Shown here in pieces: positions 1,856-58,529 of a stretch of DNA of 64,000 bases. The notes under the pieces were generated by a model. The model saw nothing but the letters and a program-made list of their open reading frames with translations. It did not search any database and had not been told where the DNA came from. Numbering within the stretch: position 1 is the first letter of the stretch; each line of letters opens with the position of its first letter. The position numbers were made by a program, and so were the translations under genes. Location of the stretch: positions 9,493 to 73,492 of the IMG/VR virus record IMGVR_UViG_2852501635_000002; one strand, written 5' to 3'. The DNA comes from a virus (taxonomy: Duplodnaviria > Caudoviricetes).

Positions 1856-1863
1856 AATCAAAT

Positions 1864-1921
1864 AAAAAACGCCCAGAGCCGTTATGTAGATATTAACTAT
1901 TGTCTACGAACGGGGCTGGGC
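1864..1921 (-). ncRNA. Long hairpin plus U-tract leader upstream of NYN gene (candidate RNA antitoxin or attenuator)
   Basis: GCCCAG-CCCCGTT-CGTAGA...TCTAC-ATAACGG-CTCTGGGC then GTTTTTT; TTGACA (1957-1962) and TAGTCT (1933-1938) promoter upstream. Confidence 0.5.
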
Positions 1922-2024
1922 TTGACGTCCTTAGACTATTCCAGTTGCCAACCCAATGTCAACAACTTTTTTAATTATTTTATATCAGACTTAGATGCCA
2001 CACCCTAAAACGTGTCGTCAGGCA

Positions 2025-2159
2025 TTATAGCCACGCTATACTCACAGCGATATAAAGTACAAATACCCAGAATGCACCTTTTACCAATAGGTAAATTAGA
2101 TTCCAGATTGCGGTATCTAAATTCACTAAAGCCTGAAAAAAATCATTTATATGTTTCAT
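2025..2159 (-). CDS. 44-aa hydrophobic membrane peptide flanked by 18-bp direct repeats
   Basis: Hand translation MKHINDFFQALVNLDTAIWNLIYLLVKGAFWVFVLYIAVSIAWL; repeats at 2006-2023 and 2160-2177. Confidence 0.55.
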   Translation of the reverse strand: MKHINDFFQALVNLDTAIWNLIYLLVKGAFWVFVLYIAVSIAWL

Positions 2160-2184
2160 TAAAACGTGTCGTCAGGCCATTGGG

Positions 2185-2883: not shown

Positions 2884-2904
2884 AACTAAATCATCTATCA
2901 AAAA

Positions 2905-2956
2905 TACCTTCTGGTAAATTGCCTATAGGTATTGATATTTAATTTACCTGCGGGTA
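2905..2956. promoter_or_regulatory. oR operators (2905-2916, 2920-2931, 2945-2956)
   Basis: TACCTTCTGGTA, TGCCTATAGGTA, TACCTGCGGGTA between cI and cro. Confidence 0.75.
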
Positions 2957-2991
2957 TATTTATTCTATGTTTAGGTAAACAAGGACAACAA

Positions 2992-3219
2992 ATGGAACAA
3001 TTACGGATATTCCTAAATTCCCTTTCTGTTTCTGAGCAAGAGATGTTTGCTAAAAAATGCGGAACTTCAATTGGTTACCTCAGAAAAGCTTTAGCAAAGG
3101 GCTCAAAACTAGGAGTTGCCTTATGTGTGGCAATTGAAGTTAACAGTAACTCAAAAGTAACCAGAAAAGACCTCTACCCAGATGATTGGGAAAAGAACTG
3201 GCCTGAACTGGCAGCTTAA
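2992..3219 (+). CDS. cro: Cro/YdaS-like repressor
   Basis: FAKKCGTSIGYLRK HTH, VTRKDLYPDDW tail, position. Confidence 0.85.
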   Translation: MEQLRIFLNSLSVSEQEMFAKKCGTSIGYLRKALAKGSKLGVALCVAIEVNSNSKVTRKDLYPDDWEKNWPELAA

Positions 3220-3242
3220 TAAAGATTAAAAACAAAGCAGTA

Positions 3243-3294
3243 ACTGAACGGCACAGTATATTGTCGGCCCCGAGGATCTGCCAAAACGGATGGC
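3243..3294 (+). ncRNA. putR: putR-like RNA antiterminator
   Basis: ACT-GAACGGCAC-AGT...GTCGG...GGATGGC shares putL architecture; located after cro where nutR would be. Confidence 0.65.
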
Positions 3295-3421
3295 TAAAAG
3301 TCGGATGAGGGAGAAAGAGACACTATCCCGACAATTATCAACAATCCGCTCATATGGAATGAGCCACGGATCATTACTGCTGTTCCCAATATGGGAAGTA
3401 ATCTAAGAAGGAATTTAACAA

Positions 3422-3754
3422 ATGGAATTATCAAACGAACGCAAATTTCGAGAAATCGAATCAAAAATCATGAAAGGGATACTTGTTACTGGCGCTAGAG
3501 AAGTAGCGAAAAGAACGGGTATTCACGAATCACAAATATCTCGCTGGCAATCTCAACAATCTAAAACGCAATTAAGCTTCATACAACGTTGTGCAAGGCT
3601 TTTAGTTGCTATTGGGTATGAGACACCAGATGACACAGTGATATTGCAAGGTGATGAGGCTAGGGCGTTAATTCAGATGCTTGAACATGTCAAAGCACCA
3701 AAAAGAAAAGCCCCAGCGGTAACTGAGGCTTCTCAACAAATGGACTTAATTTAA
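3422..3754 (+). CDS. cII: CII-like activator
   Basis: GAREVAKRTGIHESQISRW matches lambda CII HTH. Confidence 0.88.
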   Translation: MELSNERKFREIESKIMKGILVTGAREVAKRTGIHESQISRWQSQQSKTQLSFIQRCARLLVAIGYETPDDTVILQGDEARALIQMLEHVKAPKRKAPAVTEASQQMDLI

Positions 3755-30770: not shown

Positions 30771-33700
30771 ATGGCACAAGTAGGCGAAATTGTTTATCAA
30801 GTTCAAATGGATGTTCGGCAATTGCTTGCATCGCAACAGCAGTTAGAGCAACGCCTTAATCGTATGGATAGTAGCTTTAACCGAACGTCTCAGTCAGTAA
30901 ATAACACAGAGCGTTCAATGCAGTCTCTATCCAAAGTTGCGGCTGCTCTAACTGGTTATTTATCGGTTTCAATGGTTGCTAGTTATTCAGAGGCATGGAC
31001 TGAATTAAACAACAAGCTATCTAACTCAGTTCGCGCAAGTGAGTCACTTATTGATGTCACTCAACGAGTATTTGATATCTCTCAAGCAACGCGATCTAGC
31101 CTCGATGCCACAGCAACACTCTATGCGCGACTTGAACGAGGAACGAGAGAATACAACACATCAGCGGAAGACTTAGCAAAATTAACATCCATCATCAACC
31201 AAGGTTTTATCGTTTCTGGTGCTACTGCACAGGAAGCAGAAAACGCAATTATTCAGTTATCACAGGGTATCGCTTCTGGTGTTCTCCGTGGTGAAGAATT
31301 TAATTCAGTAGCAGAACAGGGTAGTCGCTTAATGGTTGCATTGGCTGATTCACTAGGAGTAAGTATAGGTCAGCTTCGTAAAATGGCAGCAGAAGGCAAG
31401 TTGACCACTGATGTTGTTGTAAAAGGGTTATTGTCTCAGGGGGATGCTATTGGTAAAGAGTTCGCTAAAACCACTCGAACAATGTCGCAGGCATTTCAAG
31501 AAGCAGGGAATAACTTAACTAAGTTCCTTGGTGAGAATACAACAATAAAGGCATCTATTAACGTATTCAGCGATGCTGTAATTACTGCAAGTAAGAGTCT
31601 CGATGAAATGGTTTTAGCGGTTAGTCTAGTTGCCTCCGTTGTTGGCGGTAGATACATTGCCGCAATGGGGTTGGCTATCAAAGCTAAAATGCAATCAGCA
31701 GTTGCAGCAAGGCAAGAAGCGATAGCAAACCTTCAAGCTGCTAGAGTAGCTGAACACAATGCAATAATGACGGCAAGAAAGACCGCTTTAGATTTAGCAG
31801 CAGCCAGAGCGTTAGTTGAGAAAGCGAAAACTGAATTTGCGGCCGCAAGAGGAACAAACGCAGAAGCAACCGCGCTGGCAAATTTAATTGCCGTTAGATC
31901 TGCCGCAACAACCGCGGCGATAAATCATAAGCAAGCAACGCAAGCGCAGACAGCAGCAATGGCTAACTCAGCCGCAGCAGCAAGAGCCGCTTCTGTATCT
32001 ATCGGTTTAGCTAATAAAGCTCTAGGTTTTGTTGGTGGCCCAGCAGGTATAGCAATGGCCGCGGGTGCTGCGATCATGTATTTCTACCAGCAGGCAAAAG
32101 AAGCAAGAGAAGAAGCAGTAAAACTTGCAGAGGGAGTAAATCAATTAACTGCTGAAATGAAAAACATGACAAGGGAACAAAAGAGGGCTGAATCTGCCAA
32201 GTTAAAAGAAGCGCTCCCTGAGTTAAAAAATGAAGTTCTAAACACCACTGTCGCTATGAAGCAAGCTGCGGAAAAAGTAAGAGAATTAGAGGCTGATTTG
32301 GCTTTAGCTAAAGTTGGAACAAGTAAATATGAATCCATAACAAAACAGCTAGCCGATGCTCAAGATAAGTTAGCAATTGCAACTGACAACGCAACAAAGG
32401 CGTCAAATAACTACAGTCGCACAAAAAATACCATATCTTTTATTCAAGCTGATCTTAATGGTGAGTTAAAAGAGGGAATTGATTTACTAAAAAGGGAAAT
32501 ATCTGTTCTACCAAGTGGCGCAAAGGGATGGGATTCTTATGGTTTTTCTATTGATAGGGCGCTGCAAAAAAAGAAAGAGTTTAATGGTGAAAAAATATCT
32601 TTCGAATGGTCTAAGGAGGGGATGGATTTAAGAAAATCACTAGAGCGTGAAATGAAGCTAGCTAACGCCAAAAGTGAAGTTGATAAGAGATTATTGCAAG
32701 TTGATTTTTACATTGAAGATAAAGGGATAACAGACGAAAGGGAAATATATCAACTAAAGCAAATAGCAATAGCAACTCAAAAAGCTCAAGATGCAGCCGC
32801 TGAGCGTAACAAAACAACCAAGGAATCAACCAAAGCCACAGATGCTGCTTATGAAGCACTAAAGCGCCAGAGAGAAGAAATTGAGCTTTTAAACAAAGGT
32901 TACAAAGACGGATCTCTTGAAATGGCTAAGTATGATGCAGTTAAGGCGTTGGGTGATACGGCATCCCCTAAGCAGATTGAAAAAGCGGAGCAGCTCGCAG
33001 AAGAAAAATACAACATTGAACGTAATCTAGCAGATAAGAAAGCCGCGCTTGAGCTTGATTTGGTTGCTAAAGCTAAGGAATCTCACGATAAGCAGTTGGC
33101 AGACTTAGAGCGGATAACAAAAGATGATGTATCTCTAACTGAACAGGCAGCAAGGCGTAAAGCTGAAATTGAGGCGGAATATCAGCAAAAGATAGCTGAA
33201 ATAAAGGCTAATAACGCTGTATCACCGCAAGATGACATCAAAGGGAAAGTAGATCCTGTTCAGCAACTCAAAAACGAACACGAGCGTAAACTTGCACTTA
33301 TTCGTGAGTTTGAAACAGAAAAAGGCGCTATTACTCAGCGTGGCTTAGAGTTAATGAATGCTGCTAATACTCAATATGAGCAAGCTAGAACTGATGCTAT
33401 GTATGAGCTTTGGAGAAATCAATCATTAGGAAACGAAGCTGCCGCGGCTGCACTAGATGCATTCTCTGGTAGCGCATCAAATGCACTTACAGGAATAATC
33501 ACTGGATCAATGGAGGCTTCTGACGCATTAAGATCAATTGGTAATACAGTTTTGAATAGCCTAATTAACACCTTTGTTCAGGCTGGAATTGAGCAAGCTA
33601 AAGCTGCTTGGTTTGGCGCAGCAGCACAGCAAAGCGCCATTGCAGCAACAACGGCGGTGCAAACGGCTGCTATCGGAACGCAAACGGCAGTGAGCACGGC

Positions 33701-34163
33701 AGCAGCTGCCACAACAACAGCCGCTTGGACACCTGCGGCAATTATGGCATCAATCGCGTCAATGGGGACAGCGGCGAAAATAGGTTTAGCCGCAATCGCT
33801 GTACTTGGCGTTGGTGCAATTGCTGGTGCTCGTAAAAATGGCGGCCCTGTTGACGCTGGTTCAATGTATCGAGTTGGTGAGGGCGGTAAACCTGAGATAT
33901 TTAAGGCTAACAACGGCCGACAATACATGATACCCGGTGACAATGGAAAGGTTATTTCTAATAAAGATATGCAGGGTGGTGGTATGAATGTGAATGTTGT
34001 CTTTAATGACTATTCATCTGGTGGCCACAAGTTTGATGCACAGGCATCACAAGATGGAAATACGCTAACTATTCAGGCGTTCATTATGGATATGGATAAC
34101 AAAGGCCCTATGCTTCAATCCATCACAAGAAACACATCGGCAACAGCGAGAGCAAGAGGTTGA
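30771..34163 (+). CDS. Tail tape measure protein
   Basis: 1130 aa, QLSQGIASGVLRGEEFNSV, GGPV...VGEGGKPE C-terminus. Confidence 0.93.
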   Translation: MAQVGEIVYQVQMDVRQLLASQQQLEQRLNRMDSSFNRTSQSVNNTERSMQSLSKVAAALTGYLSVSMVASYSEAWTELNNKLSNSVRASESLIDVTQRVFDISQATRSSLDATATLYARLERGTREYNTSAEDLAKLTSIINQGFIVSGATAQEAENAIIQLSQGIASGVLRGEEFNSVAEQGSRLMVALADSLGVSIGQLRKMAAEGKLTTDVVVKGLLSQGDAIGKEFAKTTRTMSQAFQEAGNNLTKFLGENTTIKASINVFSDAVITASKSLDEMVLAVSLVASVVGGRYIAAMGLAIKAKMQSAVAARQEAIANLQAARVAEHNAIMTARKTALDLAAARALVEKAKTEFAAARGTNAEATALANLIAVRSAATTAAINHKQATQAQTAAMANSAAAARAASVSIGLANKALGFVGGPAGIAMAAGAAIMYFYQQAKEAREEAVKLAEGVNQLTAEMKNMTREQKRAESAKLKEALPELKNEVLNTTVAMKQAAEKVRELEADLALAKVGTSKYESITKQLADAQDKLAIATDNATKASNNYSRTKNTISFIQADLNGELKEGIDLLKREISVLPSGAKGWDSYGFSIDRALQKKKEFNGEKISFEWSKEGMDLRKSLEREMKLANAKSEVDKRLLQVDFYIEDKGITDEREIYQLKQIAIATQKAQDAAAERNKTTKESTKATDAAYEALKRQREEIELLNKGYKDGSLEMAKYDAVKALGDTASPKQIEKAEQLAEEKYNIERNLADKKAALELDLVAKAKESHDKQLADLERITKDDVSLTEQAARRKAEIEAEYQQKIAEIKANNAVSPQDDIKGKVDPVQQLKNEHERKLALIREFETEKGAITQRGLELMNAANTQYEQARTDAMYELWRNQSLGNEAAAAALDAFSGSASNALTGIITGSMEASDALRSIGNTVLNSLINTFVQAGIEQAKAAWFGAAAQQSAIAATTAVQTAAIGTQTAVSTAAAATTTAAWTPAAIMASIASMGTAAKIGLAAIAVLGVGAIAGARKNGGPVDAGSMYRVGEGGKPEIFKANNGRQYMIPGDNGKVISNKDMQGGGMNVNVVFNDYSSGGHKFDAQASQDGNTLTIQAFIMDMDNKGPMLQSITRNTSATARARG

Positions 34164-40368: not shown

Positions 40369-40599
40369 TCACTCACTCTTCAAATACTGCACTGATTTTC
40401 CATCCGGCAACTTCTTACTTCTCTCACGATAAAACGTTAATCGTTCATTAAAGTACGCTCGTAAATGTGCTGGTTGTTGTCTTTCAACTTCTGAGGCAAC
40501 AACTGGCATATTGAGGCGTTCTTTATATGCGACACCACTTGCGGCCAAATCGACATTAATCTTGTCTTTTTCTTCTTGAGTTAGGTTTGCGAGGTTCAT
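40369..40599 (-). CDS. holE: DNA polymerase III theta subunit homolog
   Basis: [32 protein letters not shown]. Confidence 0.9.
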
Positions 40600-40773
40600 A
40601 ACAGATCCAGTTAGTTTTTGGAGAGTATAGCAGGGTGGGAGAATTGATGGGACGAATTTGGGACAAGCAACATGAAGTAGCATAAGGCAACTTCAAGTAA
40701 CTTTAGGTAAGGTGGGACGTGTGAACGCTTGGTGAGACTGTATTTAGTTGATATTAAAGCATAATTCTACGCT

Positions 40774-40818
40774 CTTCTAAGCCGTAGGTCACAGGTTCGA
40801 ATCCTGTAGGGCGTACCA
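40774..40818 (+). repeat. 3' half of tRNA-Arg(UCU): prophage attR and probable satellite attL
   Basis: CTTCTAAGCCGTAGGTCACAGGTTCGAATCCTGTAGGGCGTACCA; anticodon loop, T arm and CCA present, 5' half absent. Confidence 0.88.
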
Positions 40819-40983: not shown

Positions 40984-42195
40984 ATGAAGCTAACAGCCAG
41001 ACAAGTAGAGACTTCCAAGCCAAAAGAGAAAGCTTATAAACTTTCTGACGGAGGGGGCATGTATTTAGAAGTTGCTCCGAATGGTTCTAAGTATTGGCGT
41101 ATGAAATATAGATATGCTGGTAAAGAGAAAAGGCTGGCTTTAGGTGTATACCCATCAATATCACTCGCACAAGCTAGGGCGAAGAGAGAAGAAGCCAAGC
41201 GCATATTAGCGTTAGGTGATGATCCATCTTTAGTGAAGAAAGCAGAAAAGAGAGAGAAAGAATCTCAAGTAAATAATAGCTTTGAAAAAATTACGCTTGA
41301 ATGGCATGACTATAAAAAGCCGAATTGGTCAAAAGGTTATGCGGATGATTTACTAGAAGCCTTCCAGAAAGATATCTTTCCTTATATTGGTAAAGTTAGC
41401 ATTACAGAAATTAAACCGTTAGATATGTTAGAAGTGCTTCGGAAGTTAGAAAAACGCGGTGTGTTGGATAAGCTTAAAAAGATAAGGCAGGCATGTAACC
41501 AAGTATTCCGCTATGCAATTGTGACAGGACGGGCTGAGTATAATCCCGCATCAGAATTAGCCGGCGCACTGTCTACTCCAAAAGCTAAGCATTTTCCTCA
41601 CTTAAATGTGAATGAGTTACCTGAGTTTTTACAGGCACTATCTGTATGTAGTGGAAGTAAGATCACTCAGATTGCGACAAAGCTATTAATGATAACAGGC
41701 GTTCGTACTATTGAGCTTAGAGCTGCTGAATGGTCAGAAATTGATTTTGATAAAGCTATTTGGGAAATTCCAAAAGAACGTATGAAAATGCGTCGCCCTC
41801 ACATGGTGCCATTATCTACACAGGCCTTAGAATTATTCAAAGAAATACAAACCATAACAGGAAAGTTTAAGTATATCTTTCATGGTAGGAATGATGCTTC
41901 TAAACCAATGAGTGAAGCGGCCATAAATCAGGTTATCAAGCGTATTGGTTATGATGGTAGAGCCACAGGTCACGGATTCAGACATACAATGAGCACCATC
42001 CTGCACGAACAAGGCTATAACACTGCATGGATTGAGACTCAACTTGCACACGTTGATAAAAACTCTATTCGTGGAACGTATAACCATGCTCAGTATATTG
42101 ATGGCCGTAGAGAAATGCTTCAATGGTACGCTGATTATATGGATACTTTAGAGAGCGGGGATAATGTTGTCCACGGTAACTTTAAACGTGCTTAA
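40984..42195 (+). CDS. int: P4-family tyrosine integrase
   Basis: LSDGGGMYL, GVRTIELR, HGFRH, QLAH, YNHAQY. Confidence 0.96.
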   Translation: MKLTARQVETSKPKEKAYKLSDGGGMYLEVAPNGSKYWRMKYRYAGKEKRLALGVYPSISLAQARAKREEAKRILALGDDPSLVKKAEKREKESQVNNSFEKITLEWHDYKKPNWSKGYADDLLEAFQKDIFPYIGKVSITEIKPLDMLEVLRKLEKRGVLDKLKKIRQACNQVFRYAIVTGRAEYNPASELAGALSTPKAKHFPHLNVNELPEFLQALSVCSGSKITQIATKLLMITGVRTIELRAAEWSEIDFDKAIWEIPKERMKMRRPHMVPLSTQALELFKEIQTITGKFKYIFHGRNDASKPMSEAAINQVIKRIGYDGRATGHGFRHTMSTILHEQGYNTAWIETQLAHVDKNSIRGTYNHAQYIDGRREMLQWYADYMDTLESGDNVVHGNFKRA

Positions 42196-42411
42196 CCCAC
42201 CAGCAGACACATACAGAACCAGACAATAAAAGGTCTGGTTTTTTTGTACCGAGAAAGGGCATTAATAATATTTAATCATTAAATGTATGATGTGGCTGAA
42301 TTCTAACTAAGATGAGAAAAATCTTAATATACGCTTAAGAGTACACCCTAGTAGACGACAATAGACTATGCGAAGATGTGATAAATAAAACTGTTCGTTT
42401 CTTAAGCTTGA

Positions 42412-42427
42412 CTGTTCATTATTACAG
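42412..42427. promoter_or_regulatory. LexA (SOS) box between TTGACT and TATAAT hexamers
   Basis: CTGTTCATTATTACAG = CTG-N10-CAG. Confidence 0.6.
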
Positions 42428-42469
42428 TATAATATACCTAGTAGTACCGCAGTAGATCATTGTGGACTT

Positions 42470-43218
42470 CGCTCTTTAACACCTCTGCGCTGAAAAACGC
42501 GATATGTTCTTTAACAACGATGATGGCGAGCTGTGTGTTAGTCATCAGAACGGTGGCGCTGATAAAGCGACCAATGCTCTTTTACAAATTCGGGTATGCC
42601 CAGAGTAAATTCTCAGGGACAATCTGTCACGGTGGCGCTCTTGAAGCGCTGATATATGAATTTTTATCTGATTAGTAGCAGAACCAGCTTGTAACAAATA
42701 AGGAACGCTCAGAGCAATTTCTCCGAGCATATAAGTTTTATTGATAATCTTTATATTAGATTATCAGCTCTTTAAAATATGGATTCCCCCTTGGGTTGTC
42801 TTGAGGGGGCTAATGATAACCTCATTAGCATGTTGATGACTTCTCAACATAAATAATATTTGTAGCAAAATATGTACTGATAGCTACTTGTTCTTTAAAA
42901 ACTGACCTGCGCTCCTTGCAAATGGGAGCTTTTAGTAAACAACTTAATGATTTTGTTCTGTTTACTAAATATATGTAGTTCAGGTCGTTAATGGCAATCA
43001 GCTAAATTGAATAATATAATTGTAACTATTCAAATTAGTAAATTGTTCTTTGAAATTTAAGTCTCCGCCTTTGTGGAGTGTAGTTCTGTTCTTTAAAACT
43101 TATTTCGCTCCTGCATCAGGAGCAAAGCTCATATCTATATCAATGGAAATATTATCTTATCAAATATTCATTAATTATAGTTATGTTCTTTTCAAGGCTC
43201 TATGCACAGGCAGTGAGC
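42470..43218 (+). repeat. Array of boxA-like motifs each followed by hairpins (nut-like array)
   Basis: boxA-like 12-mers at 42470, 42505, 42575, 42766, 42889, 43044, 43087, 43184, plus a degenerate one at 42686. Confidence 0.7.
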
Positions 43219-43375
43219 ACAAATCAGTTTATTATTGAGATTGTTTTATTTTAAACAACAAGCCCCCACTCAAAAAACACCTTAAAATATAAACCATAAT
43301 ATGCGTTATTAACCTTATACATTTATGTATAGGGTTTTTTCGCATGTCTTTTCATATCACATTAAGGAAAATACT

Positions 43376-43573
43376 ATGAATAATCTGATTAGGCTTTCAG
43401 AGGTTTTGCGACGCACAGGTTACAGCAAAGCTTGGATTTATAGACTAATTAAAGAAAATGACTTTCCTAAACAAGTCAAAATAGGAGCTCGTTCTATTGC
43501 TTTTGTTGAATCAGAAGTAGATGAATGGATTGCTAATAAGATTGCTGAATCACGTTCTGGTGAGGTGGCATAA
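43376..43573 (+). CDS. alpA: AlpA-family regulator/excisionase
   Basis: LIRLSEVLRRTGYSKAWIYRLI..FPK.VKIG.RSIAFVESEVDEWI. Confidence 0.93.
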   Translation: MNNLIRLSEVLRRTGYSKAWIYRLIKENDFPKQVKIGARSIAFVESEVDEWIANKIAESRSGEVA

Positions 43574-43980: not shown

Positions 43981-44814
43981 ATGAAACTAAAAAATAACAG
44001 CTTAAATGCTGGTGGATTCGCTCACCCTGAAAACCACTCTAGCGATATTAAGGAATTATCTTTTGCTGAAATGCTGCCAGTAATTCAGGGAAATATTAAC
44101 GGGCAGATTATTAATGCAGTAAGTGCCAAAGCATTACACGAAGCATTAAGTGTAGGTCGTGATTTTTCTACTTGGATTATTGGCCGTGTTAATGAATACG
44201 CTTTTGTGGAAGGAACGGATTATCAATCAGATGATGACTTTAATATTCGCTGCTTACTTAATGAACAATATTCCCCCGTTTTGGGGAATAATACAAAACG
44301 TGGTCGCCCTGAAAAGGATTACTTATTAACGCTAGGCATGGCTAAAGAATTGGCAATGGTTGAACGTACCGAAAAAGGGCGCTTAATCCGGCAATACTTT
44401 ATCAAGTGTGAGGAAGCTCTACACAAAGTCGCGCCAACAATCACTAAGCAGTTACGGCATCAACTTAAATCACGCCTCAAAGTGGCTAGTTACTTTAAGC
44501 CGATGTGTTCAGCGTTAGAGCTAGCACGTATGGAGCAAGGCAAAAGCACACTACCGCACCACTACACAACTGAGTCAAACATGCTTAACCGAATTGTGTT
44601 AGGTGGACTCACTGCCAAAGCATGGGCGAAGCAGAACGGCATTATTGGCAATCCCCGTGATGCTATGAGCGAAACCCAATTAGAGCACCTTTCATACCTT
44701 GAGCAGACGAATACAACGCTAATTGAATTAGGCATGGACTATCACGCACGCAAGGACAAGTTAATCAGTCTATCTCAAAAGTGGTTAGCGCAACGTGTAG
44801 AGGTGGCGCAATGA
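43981..44814 (+). CDS. AntA/AntB antirepressor-family protein
   Basis: VSAKALHEAL.VGRDFSTWI, DYLLTLGMAKELAMVERTEKG..IRQYFI. Confidence 0.9.
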   Translation: MKLKNNSLNAGGFAHPENHSSDIKELSFAEMLPVIQGNINGQIINAVSAKALHEALSVGRDFSTWIIGRVNEYAFVEGTDYQSDDDFNIRCLLNEQYSPVLGNNTKRGRPEKDYLLTLGMAKELAMVERTEKGRLIRQYFIKCEEALHKVAPTITKQLRHQLKSRLKVASYFKPMCSALELARMEQGKSTLPHHYTTESNMLNRIVLGGLTAKAWAKQNGIIGNPRDAMSETQLEHLSYLEQTNTTLIELGMDYHARKDKLISLSQKWLAQRVEVAQ

Positions 44815-45536
44815 TTACCCTATGTTCAATAAAGGATATTGCCTACCAAGTGAATAATTCTCTACTGGCAGGTAATAACGTAAGTTCAACTTACACCACG
44901 ACTAATACGGTAGCTTTAAACTATGGTATTACGGGCAGTCAATCAGCGAAAATTTACGCCAATCAATCAATCCTAACCACCGTTGGAGGATGGGATAACA
45001 GCGATAACCTAAAACGTGGAGAATTTACACCATTTATTAAAGGTGATTTTTCTCACCTTTCTAAAGTCGGGAAATCTCGCTATTTATCGAGTGAAATTGA
45101 GTTTTTACAGTCCATAAAAAAGGGCGGCCAATCGGCTACCCTTGGGAACGTCGATATTAAATACCGAGCAAGTGAGAACTATAAGAATAGTATTCATCTT
45201 GTTATCGGTAAAGATGACAACCTTGAGTTAATACAAAAATGTGCAATACATCACTTGCACTTATGGGTAATTGTTGGCTATAGTGATCAGGCACTAGCAA
45301 AATCTAGTGTCAGGATTGGCGTTCTGAATTTGTACAAGGCGACACATGACGCGCCTAGCGTCTTTTTTTGTGTCAATGCCTACGCACACCTATTAAATGC
45401 GGTATTATATCGCACCGAATCTATGGTGGCGGCAGCAGAGCAACCGAAAGGTTGGCTGGTTTCCTTGTACGCCAGTAACGCCAACTCTACTGTCGTCACC
45501 ACCCCGAAATTGGCGTTTCTGGTGGTGACTCCTTAG
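44811..45536 (+). CDS. Ash-family ORF overlapping c4/CI RNA, with composite N-terminus
   Basis: GYS..ALAKSSVRIGVL, APSVFF, SMVA..EQPKG motifs. Confidence 0.7.
   Translation: MITLCSIKDIAYQVNNSLLAGNNVSSTYTTTNTVALNYGITGSQSAKIYANQSILTTVGGWDNSDNLKRGEFTPFIKGDFSHLSKVGKSRYLSSEIEFLQSIKKGGQSATLGNVDIKYRASENYKNSIHLVIGKDDNLELIQKCAIHHLHLWVIVGYSDQALAKSSVRIGVLNLYKATHDAPSVFFCVNAYAHLLNAVLYRTESMVAAAEQPKGWLVSLYASNANSTVVTTPKLAFLVVTP
45424..45501 (+). ncRNA. c4 / P4 CI-type antisense RNA
   Basis: Closing stem TGGTGGCGGCAG/CTGTCGTCACCA; loops CCTTGTAC (45463) and AACGCCAA (45477) complementary to GTACAAGG (45332, 45541) and TTGGCGTT (45316, 45510). Confidence 0.85.
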
Positions 45537-48141: not shown

Positions 48142-48486
48142 ATGATAACGAAGAATTTTAAAGTTAATTCACTAGCGAATAGCTACGCAGCTGCTATTTA
48201 CCACGATATTACCACACGTAATGGCGGTGATTGGTTTTCGATGAAGGTAGGCAACAAAACGATTGAAGTTGCCATTATTGACGGTGTGAAAGGTATTCGA
48301 ATGCTCGTTGATAGCTATTTGCTGAAAGCCTTAAAAGGGCAATATCCCACATGGGAGGCAGTTGCTATTGGCTTGATAGAGCAATGTGTCATTAATGGAT
48401 ATGTCACAGGTTATGGTCGAGAGGTGTGGCAAAGCATGATTAATGATATGGGCGACTCTTTCGCTGATAAGGGGGCGTTTCAATGA
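48142..48486 (+). CDS. Hypothetical protein
   Basis: ORF coupled to primase. Confidence 0.65.
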   Translation: MITKNFKVNSLANSYAAAIYHDITTRNGGDWFSMKVGNKTIEVAIIDGVKGIRMLVDSYLLKALKGQYPTWEAVAIGLIEQCVINGYVTGYGREVWQSMINDMGDSFADKGAFQ

Positions 48487-51203
48487 AGCCGATTGATGTT
48501 ATCCGTGAGGTGAAGCTGAAAGCTAACGGACAATGGCAAGCTATATTATCTCACCTTGGGGCAGAAGTGCCCCTAAACACGCACACGGCTTGCCCTCATT
48601 GTGGTGGTAAAGACCGGTTTAGATTTGATAACAAGGACGGTAATGGCACGTTTATTTGTAATCAGTGCGGTTCTGGTGATGGATTAGATCTCGTTCAGCG
48701 TGTGTTAGGTGTCAGTGTAACCGAAGCTGCAAAAGAAGTTGCTAACATAATTGGTATTGATACCCGTTCAGCGTGTCCACCAGCCTACCGTCGTTCTGAG
48801 ATAAAAGCACAACAAGACGAACTGAAAGCGCAGCAAGCCGAAAAACAAGCTAACGAGAAGAGAGAGAAGCATAAACGCTTTATTGAACGGTATAACCGCA
48901 CTATTGCCAATGTTCAACGTGGGAGATCTGACTATCTCAAGGCTAAGGGGCTGCATGGTTTTGAAATGGATTTATTACAGGACGGTTCTCTTATCATTCC
49001 ATTATTGGACGCTGGTGGCGTTATTACTGGCGCACAAACTATTAAGCCTAATGGTGATAAGCGTTTGCTGTCAGATAGCGCAAAGTCAGGCAGTTATTAC
49101 CCCATCAATGAGCCTGTAAACGTCTCTACGGTGATTATCGCTGAAGGATTAGCAACCGCCCTAACGTGTCACTTAATCCAACCAGAAGCGCACACAGTTG
49201 CGGCAATTGATGCGGGAAACCTCATTCATGTAGCTAAGGTAATGCGAGTTAAGTATCCAGAGAGCAAGATTATTATTGCTGGGGATAACGATATTAAGCC
49301 AGGCCAAGACAATACAGGGAAATTAGCGGCAGAAAAGGCAGCTAAGGTGGTTAATGGTGTCGCTGTTTTACCCCCTACTGATGATAAAGCCGATTGGGAT
49401 GACTACCGCCTATCACACGGTATTGATGCGGCAAGACAGGCATTTAATGAAATATTAGAGCAGCAAGGAGGCAAGGTGATGATAGAAACTAGGGTAAGCA
49501 ATGAAGTCGTTAAACCTGACCCAATGAAGCCACGCATTGAATCACGTAAAGAGGGGGTATTTCTTGTTACACCGAAAGCCGACAAGGAAACAGGGGAAAT
49601 CATCAATCATGAGCAGTGGTTATCAAATGCTATCAAGCGGATCACTAAAGGTGTTAATGACCTCAATCAAGAGTATTTGATTATTGAGTGGGGGAATAAC
49701 AATGTTCAGGCAATACCGACAGGCGATATAGGAGAGCGTGAAGGATGGCGCACATTAAAAAACGCGGGGTTATTTGTCACTACCAAATCAGGATTAAGAC
49801 AGTCGTTTTCTGATTGGCTGTTACGTCAACCATTCAAAGAGGACTGGAGTATTACGAATAAATCAGGTTGGCACAAAGGCGCATATATCATGCCCGATGG
49901 TTCAATTATCGGCACACCTGAACAACCGATATTTTTTAACGGACAAAGCGCAGCAGCAACTGCCTACAAAGCAAGTGGAACGGTGGAAAGCTGGCGAAAT
50001 GATGTAGCGCGATTGGCTAACGGTAATAGTTTTATGATGTTTACGATTGGCGCCGCATTATCTGCACCGATGACGAGTCTTACGGGGGCTGACAGCTTTG
50101 GTATTCACATTTACGCTCAATCGACAGCAGGGAAAAGTACCACGGCAGATATGGCCGTGAGTTTATACGGTGATCCTGATTTACAGCGCTTAACATGGTA
50201 TGGCACTGAATACGGTATGACTAACGAAGCTGTAGCGCACAATGACGGACTTTTGTATTTGGATGAAGTCGGACAAGGGGCAGACCCTAAACACGTCTAC
50301 AAATCGGCTTACACGCTGTTTAATGGTAAAGGTAAGATCCAAGGTGCGAAGGAGGGCGGCAATAGGCAAGTTCAAAGCTGGCGGACAGTGGCCATTAGTA
50401 CAGGAGAAAAGGATATTGAGACCTTTTTATTAAGTTCGGGTGTGAAAGTCAATGCAGGGCAGCTAGTACGATTACTCAACATCCCTATTGAACGCGCCAC
50501 TGAACTACATGAATGTGAAACAGGGAAAGCCCACGCAGATTTAATTAAGATAAATTGCCGTTCTAGCTATGGGGCCGCAGGACGTTATTGGATTGAATAT
50601 CTATCAAATCATAAAGATGAAGCTAAAGAAGCCTATAGAACTGCACAACAACGCTGGAGTAAATTAATTCCGAGCAGTTACGGAGAACAAGTTCATCGAG
50701 CCAGTGATCGATTCGCTACTATAGAAGCGGCTTTGATAATGGGCCGTGTGATTACTGGCTGGAATGAACAAGATTGTAAGGATGCTGTTCAAGCCGCGTT
50801 TAACGCTTGGATTGCTGAGTTCGGCACAGGTAATAAAGAGATTGAACAGATTAAAGATCAGACGATCGCTTTTTTAAGTACGTATGGAATGAGTCGATTT
50901 GCTCCATTGCCTTATGATGAGCAATCTTTACCTATCAGAGAACTTGCAGGGTACAGAGTTAAATCAAACACGCAGGATGAAGCGCCCATATTATTTTATA
51001 CATTGCCAACAGTATTTAAGAACGAGATAGCCAAAACGTTCAATACGGACACTTTCGCTGATGCCCTGCATAAACTAGGTATTTTAAAAAAGCCTTCCAA
51101 TGGGAAAGGATATCAAGGCAGAACACCGCGTTTGAAACATTTAGGCAACATTCAGCAACGCGCCTATATTTTGATGCTTGTTCCTGATGAAGAGGAGGAG
51201 TGA
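48483..51203 (+). CDS. Primase-helicase (P4 alpha zinc finger, TOPRIM, DUF927)
   Basis: CPHCGGKDRFRFD..CNQCG, AEGLATA, AGDND, QSTAGKST, LDEVGQ. Confidence 0.93.
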   Translation: MKPIDVIREVKLKANGQWQAILSHLGAEVPLNTHTACPHCGGKDRFRFDNKDGNGTFICNQCGSGDGLDLVQRVLGVSVTEAAKEVANIIGIDTRSACPPAYRRSEIKAQQDELKAQQAEKQANEKREKHKRFIERYNRTIANVQRGRSDYLKAKGLHGFEMDLLQDGSLIIPLLDAGGVITGAQTIKPNGDKRLLSDSAKSGSYYPINEPVNVSTVIIAEGLATALTCHLIQPEAHTVAAIDAGNLIHVAKVMRVKYPESKIIIAGDNDIKPGQDNTGKLAAEKAAKVVNGVAVLPPTDDKADWDDYRLSHGIDAARQAFNEILEQQGGKVMIETRVSNEVVKPDPMKPRIESRKEGVFLVTPKADKETGEIINHEQWLSNAIKRITKGVNDLNQEYLIIEWGNNNVQAIPTGDIGEREGWRTLKNAGLFVTTKSGLRQSFSDWLLRQPFKEDWSITNKSGWHKGAYIMPDGSIIGTPEQPIFFNGQSAAATAYKASGTVESWRNDVARLANGNSFMMFTIGAALSAPMTSLTGADSFGIHIYAQSTAGKSTTADMAVSLYGDPDLQRLTWYGTEYGMTNEAVAHNDGLLYLDEVGQGADPKHVYKSAYTLFNGKGKIQGAKEGGNRQVQSWRTVAISTGEKDIETFLLSSGVKVNAGQLVRLLNIPIERATELHECETGKAHADLIKINCRSSYGAAGRYWIEYLSNHKDEAKEAYRTAQQRWSKLIPSSYGEQVHRASDRFATIEAALIMGRVITGWNEQDCKDAVQAAFNAWIAEFGTGNKEIEQIKDQTIAFLSTYGMSRFAPLPYDEQSLPIRELAGYRVKSNTQDEAPILFYTLPTVFKNEIAKTFNTDTFADALHKLGILKKPSNGKGYQGRTPRLKHLGNIQQRAYILMLVPDEEEE

Positions 51204-53045: not shown

Positions 53046-53386
53046 TGGAAAAATTACAACGGTTAGCAAGCACTATAGCCCAGATTTATGTTGATAATTT
53101 AAAAGCTGAAACAGGAGAAACATTAGTAACTTATAACGGTATCACAGGTAAAGTTACCCCTGAATTACTGGCCGCTGGATTGTTTGATAATGCGGTATTT
53201 GCGGTTAAAGCGGATGGAGAAGAGATTGACGTTGAAGGTAAGGCGTATGATTTACTATCCCCGTTAATTAACTTATCAACAAAGCCTTACTCCCTAACGG
53301 GACAGGCATATAAATTGATTAATTTTCTCAATGTGCAGGCACTAAAAGCAGGAAGCACTTTATCAACCTTATCAGTTGTACATTAA
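53045..53386 (+). CDS. Hypothetical protein directly upstream of satellite TMP
   Basis: TAATG-coupled ORF; possible chaperone by position only. Confidence 0.65.
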   Translation: MEKLQRLASTIAQIYVDNLKAETGETLVTYNGITGKVTPELLAAGLFDNAVFAVKADGEEIDVEGKAYDLLSPLINLSTKPYSLTGQAYKLINFLNVQALKAGSTLSTLSVVH

Positions 53387-53402
53387 TCACAGGGAGAAAA
53401 TT

Positions 53403-56400
53403 ATGTATCATGGCGAAGGTTACACAGTATATGTAGATGCCGATACGGCCGGCCTTCTTGAGGCTAACCGTGAAATCGAAAAAGCAAGAAGAAAAATAAA
53501 TGATTTAGGCAACGAAGCAAACACCACAAGCAAATCATTTACTCAATTCAATAAATCAGCAATCGCGGTTTCCAGTGCGTTAAAAATGCCTGAAATAAAC
53601 CGCTTATCACGTCAAATGAGTGAATTGGCGGGGCAAATTGGCGCTGCTTCAATGGCAACAGATAAGGCAACGACTGTTAACGCGCGTTTTACAGGTGTGA
53701 TTAGCAATGTGTCTGGGCTACTAGGGGCGGGATATGTTTCTAATATTGGTAGCGCTACTGTTTCGCTCTTGCAACATACTCAAGGGGCAATTAATGCCAC
53801 ACAAGCCGAGGTTTTACATACTCGCGCTATTCAAATGAAGGCTCAGGCATTGCAAGCTGCTGCCTCCCAAGAAGTGATTAACGCCAAAAATCTTAAAGCA
53901 TCAACACAAGCAGAGCTAAAAGCAGCTCAGGCAGCGTTAGAACACGTTTATTCATTAGAAGGCTCTAATGATATCAAGCAGCGTAATTTAGAGTCACTTA
54001 GGGCACGACAGGCAGCAGTGCTCAAGGATGCTGAAATAACTTATCAAATGACTGCGAGTGAAGAAAATTTGCAGCGAGTGACTAAAGCCAGTAATGCGCT
54101 ACATGCTACGGAAACTAAAATAAAAACGCATTTAGCTACAACCGGAAAAGAAATTGCGCTTGTTGAGGCTAGAGTCGCTAAAGCAAAAGAAGCAGAAACA
54201 CTAGCAACTCAAAAATTAAATGCGGCATTAGCATTAGAGCAAAAAGCGAAAGCCACACTAGCCACTACAACAGACGCGGTGACCGTAGCTAATGGTCGCG
54301 CAGCCCAAGCGGCTAGAAGTCAATCCATTGCTATGCAAGGATTGCGAGGTGTTGTGGGGTTATTAGGTGGCCCAACGGGTGTTTTTATGTTGGCTACTGC
54401 TGGCGTGTATGCGCTATATAACGCGATGAATGATGACACCGCAACGAAAGAGTTTAATGACAGAGTAGATCAGTGGATTGATAAAATTGACGAACTGTCA
54501 GCCAAACAGGCTCGCGCTGTGGCTAACCGCTTAGGCGAGAAGATAGCGGAAACAACCACACAACTAGAGGGACAGAAAAAAAGTCTTTCCAGTGTTAATT
54601 CAGATCTAAAAAGATATGAAAATAGACTTGCTGATATTAATAAAGAGATTCAAAGACAAAAAGAACAAGGTTTTGAAGTAGGTAAGTCTTACGTTCAGGA
54701 TGATATAGTAAAGGAAATCGAAAAACTCACCAAGAAACAGCAGCAGTATGAGCTGATTATTTCAGAAGGTGAGCAGAATATTCGTCGCTGGACGGTATCA
54801 CAAGGTAAAGCCGCTAATATTGCAAAAGAGAGAGCAAAACAAACAGACGAACTCAGCAGAGCGGAATTAATTTATCAACGCCAAGCTAAAGGGATAGTTG
54901 ATGCTAACCAACAATTAGCTAGATCACTAGAGCTAGGCAGTGACGCAGCCGTTAAGAAAGAACAAGCCATCAAAGAGTTAGAAAAGGCTTTAATTGCTGA
55001 TGGTTTTGTTAAAGACTCCGAGTTATTTAAACAAAAAATACAAGAGTTAACGGATGAGCTTGATAAGAAGGCAAGTTTAAACCTTGCTAACTCTCTTGCT
55101 GAGATAGAGCAACGAACACAAGCCCTCACTATTGGCATGAAAGACGGTAAGCCTGCACTGGATGAATACAATGCCTCGTTACTGCTTATGCAAATGGGGA
55201 TAAAAAAAGGTTCGGCTACCTACAATACCGAACTCCCGAAAGCGATAGAGGCAATACGCAATTTACGTGAAGCTCAAGAAGCCGCACTAAATAGCAAATC
55301 AAATGCTAACAAGTCGTTGAAAGCGATTAATAAGGCAAATGATGCCATTAAAAAACAACAGCAACAGACTGAGACGTTAAGAAAAGAATTTGAATTATTG
55401 AGTTCTGGCGCAGCTAACGTAAATAGAGAGATGGCTATTTTTAACGCTGTTCAAAGTCTGGGTGCTGATGCGACAGACAAGCAAAAGAAAGCTATTGCTA
55501 AAGAAGTCGCCGAAGTTTTTGACCTCAAACAAAAAGTCGATGACTTTATTAAGTCGCAAGAAATTACTCCAGAGTTAAAACTTGCAAGAGCATTTAGACA
55601 AGAATCTGAAGAGCTTAAACGCATGTTTGATAATGATTTCATTGATGAAGAAACGTTTAAGGCGTTAGGCAATAAAGCAATGAAGGCATTTGATGCTGGA
55701 ATGGCTGAAATAAAAATAAACGCGGTTATTGACCCAATAACTGAAGCCAAAGGGCAATACGACCCGATACAAGCACTGGCTAACGAACACGCTAAGAAAC
55801 TTGAGATGATCCGCCAATTCGAAACAGAAAAAGGCGCTATTACTCAGCGTGGCTTAGAGTTAATGAATGCCGCTAATACTCAATATGAGCAAGACCGGTT
55901 AAATGCTCAATGGGAGATATGGCGCAATCAAAGCCAAGCCAATCAATTCTTAGCTGATGGGTTGGACGCATTAGGACAGCGCTCTACTAACGTACTCACA
56001 GGGCTATTAACTCAAACACAATCCATTAACGATGCTTTCCGTAATGTCGCCTTAACCATCGTAGACCAAGCCGTTGGCGCTCTGGTCCAAATGGGTATGC
56101 AACAAGTTAAGAATATGATTATGGGTGAAAGTATGGCGACAGCCGCTCAAGCATCTGCATTGGCTCAGGCTGCGGCAGCACAAGCGGCATGGGCACCAGC
56201 GGCATTAAGCGCATCAATAGCCACATTAGGCGCAGCAGTAGCAACGGGAACATCATCATATACGGCGGCTATGGCAGCTAGTAAAACGATGGGGTTGGTT
56301 GCTGGTGCTCGTAAAAATGGTGGACCCGTAAATGCTGGCTCTATGTATCGAGTGGGTGAAGGTGGTAAGCCTGAGATATTCAAAGCATCTAACGGTAGTC

Positions 56401-56633
56401 AGTACATGATACCGGGTGATAATGGTCGAGTTATTAGCAATCGACAAATGGGTAAAGGTGGTAATGGTGTCAGCATGGGTGATATGAACTTTACATTCCA
56501 AGTTCAAGCACCTAATGGCATTACTCAAAAGGAGGCGCAACAAATACAGCAAATGGTGAGAGGTACGGTTTATGACGTACTTGGTAACGAAATGCGTAGC
56601 GGTGGTGCTTTGGAAAAAGTAAGAAGTTGGTAA
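53403..56633 (+). CDS. Satellite-encoded tape measure protein
   Basis: Ala-rich coiled coil, LLGGPTG, C-terminal blocks nearly identical to prophage TMP. Confidence 0.88.
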   Translation: MYHGEGYTVYVDADTAGLLEANREIEKARRKINDLGNEANTTSKSFTQFNKSAIAVSSALKMPEINRLSRQMSELAGQIGAASMATDKATTVNARFTGVISNVSGLLGAGYVSNIGSATVSLLQHTQGAINATQAEVLHTRAIQMKAQALQAAASQEVINAKNLKASTQAELKAAQAALEHVYSLEGSNDIKQRNLESLRARQAAVLKDAEITYQMTASEENLQRVTKASNALHATETKIKTHLATTGKEIALVEARVAKAKEAETLATQKLNAALALEQKAKATLATTTDAVTVANGRAAQAARSQSIAMQGLRGVVGLLGGPTGVFMLATAGVYALYNAMNDDTATKEFNDRVDQWIDKIDELSAKQARAVANRLGEKIAETTTQLEGQKKSLSSVNSDLKRYENRLADINKEIQRQKEQGFEVGKSYVQDDIVKEIEKLTKKQQQYELIISEGEQNIRRWTVSQGKAANIAKERAKQTDELSRAELIYQRQAKGIVDANQQLARSLELGSDAAVKKEQAIKELEKALIADGFVKDSELFKQKIQELTDELDKKASLNLANSLAEIEQRTQALTIGMKDGKPALDEYNASLLLMQMGIKKGSATYNTELPKAIEAIRNLREAQEAALNSKSNANKSLKAINKANDAIKKQQQQTETLRKEFELLSSGAANVNREMAIFNAVQSLGADATDKQKKAIAKEVAEVFDLKQKVDDFIKSQEITPELKLARAFRQESEELKRMFDNDFIDEETFKALGNKAMKAFDAGMAEIKINAVIDPITEAKGQYDPIQALANEHAKKLEMIRQFETEKGAITQRGLELMNAANTQYEQDRLNAQWEIWRNQSQANQFLADGLDALGQRSTNVLTGLLTQTQSINDAFRNVALTIVDQAVGALVQMGMQQVKNMIMGESMATAAQASALAQAAAAQAAWAPAALSASIATLGAAVATGTSSYTAAMAASKTMGLVAGARKNGGPVNAGSMYRVGEGGKPEIFKASNGSQYMIPGDNGRVISNRQMGKGGNGVSMGDMNFTFQVQAPNGITQKEAQQIQQMVRGTVYDVLGNEMRSGGALEKVRSW

Positions 56634-57433: not shown

Positions 57434-57500
57434 AACAGTGCCCCTCATAACCTCTACGTAGAACGGAGAAATCTGGTTTGCGATACGTTTGGGGCTTTCT
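57434..57500 (+). ncRNA. Candidate RNA antitoxin upstream of Abi gene
   Basis: Nested stems, TAGACA-16-TATTAT promoter at 57399-57426, T-rich tail. Confidence 0.6.
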
Positions 57501-57533
57501 TTTATCTACTATCTGATAATTTTCCATGCTGCT

Positions 57534-58529
57534 ATGCACCCTCTAAAACCTCATCTAACGTATTTTGACCAAATAAAAAAGCTAGAAAAACGAGGAATGA
57601 GTTTTGAGGATCTACCTCCTGAGCAGGCGGTAAAGAAAATAATGAATATTGGATATTACAGGCTATCTGGGTATTGGTATCCATTCCGTAAGTTAAAGTT
57701 AATCCCACCAGTAGCACCCGATGAAGCCAGACGTGAAGAAACATTCCTTGAGGGTACAACCTTTACAACGGTATACGCACACTATTTATTTGATGTAAAA
57801 CTAAGAAGTTCTATTTTTTATGGAATAGAACGAATTGAAACTTATCTTAAAGCAAAAATAGCTTACGAACTAGGTAAAGTATCCCCTACGGCATACAAAG
57901 ATAAGAATATCATCCAATACAGACATCACTACCGACATGATACATGGCTAGAAAAGTTAGATTCTTTAATAGAGCGAAATAGTGATAAAGATTGTATACG
58001 ATGGAATTTAGATAAGTATGGGGATATTCCTATATGGGCTATCGTTGATATTTGGGATTTCGGTACAATGTCTCGCTTCTACGGAATGCTTGAAGATAAA
58101 TACAAACATCAAATTTGTAAATCGCTTGGCTTTCTAAAGCCTAACTCAGCAAATGTAAGAGATGGACTGAAAACAGCATTAGAGCACCTTAATACAGTTA
58201 GAAACAGGTGTGCCCACCATGCGCGTTTATGGAATACCGATTTTTCAGACTCAAAAATTAGCATCGATGTGTTAGATAATATTGATTTAACAGCCTCGCG
58301 CTTGTCTCCAAAAAGCCCTGAACTATCAAGAATGGCAGGTATCATATTTTTAATATGGAGTCTGACCAAGAGAATAAGTTGTAATTCTACATGGCTAAGT
58401 TCAGTAAATGATCATTTAGAAAAACATCAGGGCGTTATTCCGTTTAATTCAATGGGATTCGATAATAACAATATCTCAGGATTAAAAAATCTATTGGATA
58501 AGGAAAAAGAACAATCAGCCCAATCATAA
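57534..58529 (+). CDS. Abi_2 (AbiD/AbiF) HEPN abortive infection protein
   Basis: IGYYRLSGY, IERIE, PIWAIVDIWDFG, RNRCAHH (RxxxxH). Confidence 0.92.
   Translation: MHPLKPHLTYFDQIKKLEKRGMSFEDLPPEQAVKKIMNIGYYRLSGYWYPFRKLKLIPPVAPDEARREETFLEGTTFTTVYAHYLFDVKLRSSIFYGIERIETYLKAKIAYELGKVSPTAYKDKNIIQYRHHYRHDTWLEKLDSLIERNSDKDCIRWNLDKYGDIPIWAIVDIWDFGTMSRFYGMLEDKYKHQICKSLGFLKPNSANVRDGLKTALEHLNTVRNRCAHHARLWNTDFSDSKISIDVLDNIDLTASRLSPKSPELSRMAGIIFLIWSLTKRISCNSTWLSSVNDHLEKHQGVIPFNSMGFDNNNISGLKNLLDKEKEQSAQS

Follow-up and report, generated by a model that had tools for sequence, protein, structure and literature searches.

How does a phage satellite of Gram-negative bacteria sense that a helper phage is at hand? 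In Gram-negative phage-inducible chromosomal islands (PICIs) the AlpA protein activates the island, and transcription of alpA needs a helper phage, the SOS response alone not being enough, as far as the parts of the source covered here go (PMC6092414). Helper phages raise alpA transcription through an inducer that was still under study in 2018 (PMC6092414), and the consulted sections of a 2025 paper repeat this induction and name no inducing phage factor (PMC11773190). The question is raised here by a 64,000-nucleotide stretch of viral DNA (Caudoviricetes; IMG/VR record IMGVR_UViG_2852501635_000002, positions 9,493 to 73,492; hereafter the window), in which a satellite of the Gram-negative PICI/P4-like kind, with all its genes on the + strand, lies behind a tailed prophage. 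Between the satellite integrase gene (int) and alpA there is a gap of 1.18 kb. From its sequence this gap appears to serve the rightward operon of the satellite as an untranslated leader, one constructed to sense a helper phage. We consider it likely, with a probability of about 0.7, that the N protein of a helper antiterminates this leader and so turns on alpA. The two genes that bound the gap are:

40984-42195, + strand: tyrosine integrase gene, int (Pfam Phage_integrase, Phage_int_M and Arm-DNA-bind_3)
43376-43573, + strand: alpA, 65 amino acids (PF05930 Phage_AlpA, E 4.4e-21), the gene into which the leader runs

When N is bound to the boxB hairpin of a nut (N utilisation) site, together with NusA, with NusB/NusE on boxA and with NusG, RNA polymerase resists intrinsic and Rho-dependent terminators over long distances. 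We begin with boxA. The 12-mer pattern YGYTCTTTWAMA, with up to one mismatch allowed, was searched on both strands of the window and gave 15 matches against a shuffle mean of 9.22. Eight of the 15 lie on the + strand of the gap, at 42470, 42505, 42575, 42766, 42889, 43044, 43087 and 43184, and together they span 726 bases (42470-43195), where 0.04-0.05 matches would be expected on one strand by chance (Poisson P of eight or more ~1e-15); a - strand match lies at 43249-43260. The array is far beyond chance and the observation is real. An earlier sequence-only reading had listed about nine such sites, of which eight were found at exactly the positions it gave, while the ninth, a degenerate one at 42686, fails even when two mismatches are allowed. 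The hairpins that it named are all present, and one or two hairpins stand 3' of every boxA, as follows:

42470-42501, + strand: unit 1, with boxA 42470-42481, a 5-base spacer and a weak hairpin 42487-42501
42505-42573, + strand: unit 2, with boxA 42505-42516, a spacer hairpin 42521-42547 and a boxB hairpin 42554-42573
42575-42650, + strand: unit 3, with boxA 42575-42586 and hairpins 42591-42626 and 42634-42650
42706-42728, + strand: a hairpin without a recognisable boxA (the degenerate unit of the earlier reading)
42766-42829, + strand: unit 4, with boxA 42766-42777 (one mismatch) and hairpins 42787-42808 and 42809-42829
42889-42933, + strand: unit 5, with boxA 42889-42900 and hairpin 42911-42929, then a short U run
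43044-43078, + strand: unit 6, with boxA 43044-43055 (one mismatch) and hairpin 43063-43078
43087-43123, + strand: unit 7, with boxA 43087-43098 and hairpin 43107-43123
43184-43218, + strand: unit 8, with boxA 43184-43195 (one mismatch) and hairpin 43197-43218

Folding energies were compared with those of 200 shuffles, by which units 2, 4, 6, 7 and 8 are clearly stable, units 3 and 5 marginal and unit 1 weak. The spacer plus boxB of unit 2 (42517-42574) folds at -20.0 kcal/mol (z -2.4), unit 3, which is laid out like unit 2 with a different loop, at -20.5 kcal/mol (42587-42655, z -1.5), and unit 4 at -22.4 kcal/mol (42778-42832, z -2.9). The single hairpins of the later units reach -9.6 kcal/mol in unit 5 (42911-42929, z -1.8), where the structure is terminator-like, -7.6 kcal/mol in unit 6 (z -4.3), -11.5 kcal/mol in unit 7 (z -3.5) and -10.6 kcal/mol in unit 8 (z -2.7).

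At least four of the units (1, 2, 6 and 7) are copies of real phage nut sites, half of the eight in all, and they match nutL or nutR of four different kinds of lambdoid phage or prophage. Unit 1 agrees at 26 of 28 bases with nutR of Providencia phage PSTNGR2lys, which lies directly after cro and likewise has a 5-base spacer, and a prophage in genome G003 has a nutR that is 94% identical to it over 32 bases. Unit 2 has a counterpart in Morganella phage IME1369_01, in a stretch (85.5% identity over 62 bases, E 7e-10) that is flanked by a promoter-like site and an arginine-rich open reading frame (ORF); this ORF encodes an N protein (phrog_271, PF25694), so the stretch resembling unit 2 is the nutL of that phage, and in its nutR, after the cro-position gene, the unit 2 loop recurs on another stem. 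An even closer counterpart of unit 2 (94% over 66 bases) is nutL of a prophage in genome G100, again upstream of an N-family gene. The unit 6 hairpin is identical, letter for letter, to the nutR hairpin of four IMG/VR lambdoid contigs (L212, L213, L218 and L221), where it follows a boxA right behind the end of a small gene, and 15 of the 31 loci newly found by its scan have a hairpin of this class, locus L223 having it at both nutL (upstream of the N gene) and nutR. The same identity holds between the hairpin of unit 7 and that of a prophage (L229), in which it lies 12 bases after boxA behind the cro-position gene. As a side observation, a G+C-rich viral contig (L364) carries a consensus boxA followed by a hairpin with a unit 6-like loop on a different stem; judged from this sequence, the loop type may be used by N-like proteins well outside the Enterobacterales.

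The phage sites were themselves placed by their neighbours. Sites taken as nutL were checked upstream of N-family genes in three matched loci (L166, L196 and L223) and in an E. coli example (L164), and the ORFs behind them are N proteins by both phrog_271 and PF25694, above cut-off, in 4/4 tested. The matched nutR sites that were checked lie just after the cro-position gene: in L229, L174 and L223 a CI-like repressor gene, a small helix-turn-helix gene and the nut site follow one another, and in L174 and L223 a CII-like gene comes next. The nut sites of IME1369_01, PSTNGR2lys, L223 and L229 share the boxA motif that the satellite carries on its transcribed strand, and in units 1, 2, 6 and 7 a phage-type hairpin stands a few to ~40 bases 3' of boxA. 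The earlier reading's proposal of nut-like sites with several specificities in the alpA leader is thus borne out by these four units; the check that it suggested, a match of each unit to phage nutL and nutR sites, gave no counterpart for units 3, 4, 5 and 8 in the searches made.

These matches bear on an explanation that dispenses with N. Here boxA would recruit host Nus factors only and shield an untranslated leader from Rho, with the hairpins being incidental or serving RNA stability. The boxA motifs do resemble the consensus of ribosomal RNA (rRNA) leaders, and in E. coli arrays boxA comes 0-3 bases after each hairpin, an order that is also found in rRNA leaders. The rRNA type of antitermination (boxB-boxA-boxC with Nus factors, SuhB and S4) is alike in having a consensus-type boxA on an untranslated leader, but the satellite differs from it in its many boxA copies, its phage nut-type hairpins and the expected dependence on a phage protein, and its leader runs into alpA, with no rRNA gene in the window. 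Two further points make this explanation quite unlikely in our view, in that the hairpins are homologous or identical to nut hairpins that lie beside the N genes of four phage kinds, and that under constitutive antitermination into alpA the satellite would be induced all the time. Over-expressed AlpA harms the cell, according to the covered part of the report on it (PMC6092414).

The position of the array within the leader is the second line of evidence, and it rests on the following features:

42216-42245, + strand: intrinsic terminator after int, a hairpin and seven U (fold 42210-42252, -13.9 kcal/mol, z -3.45)
42408-42435, + strand: promoter-like site of the leader (9/12 consensus positions, 16-base spacer; from a promoter scan)
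42411-42428, + strand: perfect LexA-type palindrome between the two promoter hexamers
43311-43340, + strand: intrinsic terminator before alpA, a hairpin and six U, 36 bases upstream of the alpA start

The consensus scan and folding give a promoter-like site upstream of the array and terminator-like hairpins at 42911 and 43311. The terminator next to alpA folds at -12 kcal/mol (z -5.47), and 0/200 shuffles fold as well; from its sequence, the unit 5 hairpin is a possible internal stop. The palindrome pattern has two matches in the window against 0.03 expected, and the one at 42411-42428 is a candidate LexA box by the usual form of such boxes. Promoter, nut sites, terminator and regulator gene in that order form the layout of an N-dependent switch. 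A related motif was considered and rejected as a feature of the array design: in the majority of loci of this integrase family there is, 4-20 bases after the int stop, a promoter-like element with a half-palindrome that resembles a LexA box (the comparable element of the window lies 216 bases further downstream and has a perfect palindrome), and because it is present in loci with and without arrays it is not specific to them.

We infer from this layout that the + strand is transcribed, that LexA controls the promoter, that transcription terminates when N is lacking, and that N and Nus factors are needed for read-through into alpA. The promoter at 42408-42435 would start the leader and would probably be held down by LexA. 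Without a helper, transcription would stop before alpA at the candidate sites 42911-42933 and 43311-43340, and Rho would probably also stop it, acting on ~900 untranslated bases. The leader RNA would display eight boxA elements for the loading of NusB/NusE, each with a hairpin from the nut site of a different kind of lambdoid phage. When a phage with a matching N is induced or infects, N would bind its own hairpin on the nascent leader, and N and the Nus factors would make RNA polymerase termination-resistant; the polymerase would then enter alpA, and probably also the co-oriented genes behind it, and AlpA would start the satellite cycle. In this way the array would make one satellite responsive to several N specificities, and its units may be swapped as cassettes as the local phage population shifts. 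A promoter under SOS control would add a second condition, in line with the reported lack of induction by mitomycin C on its own.

If the units copy the nut sites of real helpers, where are the phages that carry the cognate N? Short BLAST matches to the leader occur in 21 of 301 genomes of the family, and among the four that were examined true leaders are found only in G003 and G100, the other two being a nutR-like site (L176) and a chance match in a coding region (L179). Both G003 and G100 hold the satellite together with an N-bearing prophage that has a matching nut site. G100 has one N gene, with the unit 2-like nutL 160 bases upstream of it, and G003 has two N-bearing prophages, of which both nutL sites and the one nutR that was read are of the unit 1 class. 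A third case comes from sequencing run X1, which we treat as DNA because coverage is deep and even along contigs as long as 39 kb. Its contigs break at 42504-42561, and a 7.7 kb contig shares only those 58 bases, with one difference, and the 30 letters that come next in it agree fully, by eye, with the leader that precedes nutL of the G100 prophage (L196); the shared stretch and this continuation imply that a phage of the G100-prophage kind is present there alongside the satellite.

Such near-identity could also be read as debris, that is, leftovers of recombination among lambdoid elements or homology patches for exchange with a helper, with no regulatory role. It would account for unit 2 being so close to nutL of a co-resident prophage (the G100 match given above, and 57/58 bases in X1), and it would suit the turnover of units seen among related leaders. 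We aligned five of these: the window, L171 (nearly identical to it), L084 (89% identical), L175 (from genome G100) and L173 (from genome G003, Providencia alcalifaciens). Nearly invariant among them are the promoter, with two single-base differences among 28 columns, the initial 60 bases of the predicted transcript, the stem of the terminator and the 5' region of alpA. Within this frame unit 2 is absent from L173 as a clean gap of 71 columns, unit 5 is absent from L175, and unit 7 from L084 and L175. The slot of unit 4 is occupied by three different hairpins across the leaders, that of L173 being of a verified nutR class, and at the place of unit 8 a different hairpin stands in L084 and L173, the L084 version belonging to that same class. 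This fifth class, present in L084 and L173 and absent from the window, is the nutR hairpin in 14 of 15 new scan loci. Units come and go as whole cassettes within a nearly invariant frame. Debris is nevertheless very unlikely to be the explanation, given that the phage segments collected are nut sites only, that the hairpins of units 6 and 7 are preserved letter for letter, and that position, strand and flanking promoter and terminator recur across genera without DNA similarity. The same block indels cut both ORFs of the gap (42460-42675 and 43050-43238), and a coding reading of them was rejected for that reason.

This recurrence was seen in a survey of other int-alpA loci, in which the gaps of 11 of 98 contain, on their + strands, 3-7 boxA matches each. 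Their - strands have none, except for one match in L139, and the rest of each locus has 0-1. These loci come from E. coli-type, Pantoea, Mixta and other viral contigs and show no DNA similarity to the window, and hairpin-plus-U elements before alpA are common to them. The E. coli leader L131 contains a hairpin identical to that of lambda nutR, and a stretch of 45-48 bases in it is 94-96% identical to the nutL upstream of N in prophages of O157:H7 and other strains. Of 5426 complete E. coli genomes, 663 gave a match to this leader, in many cases to the phage nutL stretch only, and in 32 genomes at least 80% of the leader is covered. The gap of the window as a whole found no similar DNA in complete E. 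coli genomes, one match in phages and, among 160 loci, only L084; the Rfam 15 covariance models gave no match in 42196-43400 at E up to 1.

Several results weigh against the proposal that N acts on this leader, beginning with the units themselves. The unit 1 hairpin is degenerate and weak in the window (-3.3 kcal/mol, z -1.25; 33/200 shuffles fold as well), and covariation in unit 2 is not significant (four sequences, two double changes, with 208/500 shuffles as high). In the searches made, units 3, 4, 5 and 8 are without a phage counterpart. For the second hairpin of unit 3, which occurs in 52 contigs, none of 50 new loci had a boxA in the 120 bases before it. Unit 4, searched with a loose pattern, gave, among the matches listed, four loci with boxA, none with the same hairpin, three of them terminator-looking and one from a G+C-rich contig, and the unit 5 pattern matched only the satellites themselves and no phage. 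The partner phage is also missing close by, as the 73 kb record of the window, including the adjacent prophage, has no N-family gene, and this lambdoid prophage has no boxA after its operator-bearing promoters, pL and pR; with no N gene in its own record, the cognate N must come from elsewhere. Furthermore, in two genomes with arrays, G304 and G305 (Mixta and Pantoea), a cognate nut was not found among four N loci: each N locus shares at most one 12-base word with the array, which we read as boxA itself, and the nutL hairpins differ from those of the array.

The frame has weak points of the same kind. On the + strand, 42911 is the only site that a simple terminator scan picks out, the terminator next to alpA being found by folding only, and the hairpin in front of alpA in E. 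coli L131 is followed by a poor run of U. A metatranscriptome from an animal gut (X3) yielded only two short unstranded contigs, 42382-42638 and 43117-43277, both identical to the window, with nothing over int or alpA in the 2.2 kb compared, and the first of them begins 26 bases upstream of the predicted -35 hexamer. As unstranded sequence, the two stretches might be stable pieces of leader RNA or DNA carry-over. Finally, arrays are not general: 87 of the 98 gaps of this integrase family lack one, and so does EcCICFT073, the prototype with measured helper-dependent induction of alpA, in whose int-alpA gap boxA is absent. Several designs thus stand before alpA, and the nut array is one of them. 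The EcCICFT073 gap (L169, 11160-11526) carries short direct repeats, arranged in a run and different in kind, and in many of the array-less gaps that were read (loci L013-L151) the 3' arm of a hairpin covers the ribosome site of alpA and tandem palindromes of several kinds occur; these repeated elements may be other ways of helper sensing.

The first X3 piece, which lies over units 1-3, can also be taken, as a weak and unstranded hint, for a different role, since nothing was seen over alpA. The leader might be a decoy or sponge that soaks up helper N and/or NusB/NusE and throttles the delayed-early and late expression of the helper, in which case it would serve interference or defence, with read-through into alpA secondary to this or lacking. 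It would suit a sponge that a single RNA has many nut sites of several specificities, with boxA elements near the strongest consensus form. However, the array lies exactly between a promoter and a terminator before an activator gene, which is the layout of an N-dependent switch, nothing measured favours high leader levels, and a satellite that needs the late genes of its helper would presumably be harmed by strong titration of N. We regard a sponge as unlikely, and prefer a leader that is opened by helper N.

The surroundings of the array place it in a satellite and bear on one further alternative. The source record is a 73.5 kb provirus, and the tailed prophage, which encodes a tape measure and a tail spike, fills the window from 1 to ~40700:

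2185-2901, - strand: CI-like repressor gene of the prophage
3422-3754, + strand: CII-like gene of the prophage
40369-40683, - strand: DNA polymerase III theta-like gene (PF06440, E 1e-34) at the prophage end, just before the junction

In the prophage early region (window 700-3420) an HNH endonuclease gene is the first leftward gene, ~190 untranslated bases separate the cro-position gene from cII, and Rfam found nothing relevant. Between the prophage end and the satellite int, the bases at ~40770-40818 resemble the 3' part of a transfer RNA (tRNA); there is no second copy of this fragment within the 73 kb record, and ARAGORN found no tRNA gene in the window. To judge by its sequence and place, the fragment is probably where two elements, integrated one behind the other, meet, and it likely marks the attachment (att) site.

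With the likely att site there, it is hard to see the array as a set of DNA-level sites, for the arms of Int, for AlpA or for another protein. The integrase does have an arm-binding domain, but the likely att junction lies on the other side of int, and the repeats are spaced irregularly, 35 to 191 bases from boxA to boxA. A variant has the units as antisense terminators on the - strand, where two hairpins were flagged as terminator-like; the flags arise because the reverse complement of boxA is T-rich, and the 5-12 bases that separate the T run from the stems make for poor terminators. In both forms the idea conflicts with an orientation and spacing equal to those of phage nut sites on the transcribed strand, and we give it next to no credence.

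Beyond alpA the satellite continues on the + strand, encodes AntA, Ash and ORF6N proteins, and includes:

45291-45368, + strand: isrK RNA, within or at the end of the Ash-family ORF 44781-45536
45419-45506, + strand: C4-family antisense RNA, within or at the end of the same ORF
48483-51203, + strand: DUF927/Toprim primase gene of the satellite
53376-56633, + strand: tape-measure-like gene of the satellite, 1085 amino acids, a captured late gene
57489-58529, + strand: abortive-infection-like ORF, 346 amino acids (phrog_2158, E 5e-61), at the right end of the satellite

The isrK and C4 RNAs form the P4/P1-type RNA immunity module of the satellite's Bro zone, and since they sit downstream of alpA, a termination-resistant polymerase from the leader would cross them. 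The 346-amino-acid ORF of the abortive-infection family is likely, from its sequence, a defence cargo gene. Over its C-terminal 419 residues the captured tape-measure-like protein shares 42% identity with the adjacent prophage's tape measure (30771-34163; E 4e-79), a likeness that hints at the tail type of the helper. With int, alpA and the primase gene co-oriented, Bro and immunity-RNA zones and a captured late gene, the satellite has the genes of a Gram-negative PICI, and it fits the four-zone layout described for such islands in the part of PMC10111431 that was covered.

Compared with known systems, the array has the same elements, order and spacing on the transcribed strand as nutL and nutR of lambda and other lambdoid phages. 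Lambdoid phages, however, have one nut site per early operon for their own N, whereas the satellite has eight in a row with several specificities, has no N gene of its own and places the array before its activator gene. The array is a new use and a new arrangement of the known nut/N system and would be, to our knowledge, the first natural case of nut sites of several specificities arrayed in one transcript. In the pathogenicity islands of Staphylococcus aureus, as they are commonly described, a helper is likewise sensed through one of its early functions, with different satellites sensing different helpers, but there a helper protein binds the Stl repressor, whereas here a cis-acting RNA array would use the helper's antiterminator. 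The immunity of P4, in which the CI RNA causes premature termination, is alike in controlling leader termination with repeated RNA elements; it relies on the satellite's own RNA-RNA pairing, while the array consists of protein-binding nut-type sites upstream of alpA.

Closer relatives, seen through partly covered papers, are the Gram-negative PICIs EcCICFT073 and EcCIMP1, which likewise have int, alpA and primase, with alpA as an activator that is turned on by the helper (PMC6092414, PMC11773190); as EcCICFT073 has direct repeats and no boxA array, the array is a different or additional solution. Helper-embedded PICIs, in the sections of PMC10111431 consulted, share the zones of integration, Bro and immunity RNAs, replication and captured late genes, but they sit inside a helper late gene and are coupled in cis to helper transcription, whereas this satellite stands in tandem behind a prophage and the coupling proposed is in trans, via N. 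A search of open full texts, as far as these were covered and supplements aside, turned up no work in which PICIs or alpA are connected with antitermination, nut sites, boxA or boxB, and nothing relevant on multiple or tandem nut sites. In the covered text of a survey of boxA targets (PMC5725501) there is no passage on prophages or integrases, and in that of PMC9026076 none on AlpA or N.

A broader scheme may be drawn from these sequences, in which satellites of the Enterobacterales would carry an exchangeable library of nut sites, would answer only to SOS together with helper N, which could be of any one of several specificities, would let polymerase read through isrK/C4 and the whole island, and would act as a sink for N that delays the helper; taken as a whole, we put it forward tentatively and think it more doubtful than the switch itself.

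How Gram-negative PICIs sense their helpers has been an open question since these islands were described, and the array offers a concrete answer for a subclass of satellites. If it is correct, satellites borrow the antitermination of their helpers through RNA sites in cis and need no sensor protein. The array gives a way to read the helper range of a satellite from its sequence, and it yields new boxB classes for work on RNA-protein recognition. Under the broader scheme, the hairpins of such arrays would show which N specificities, and with them which helper phages, circulate in a host population, among them the classes of units 3, 4, 5 and 8, for which no phage is yet known.

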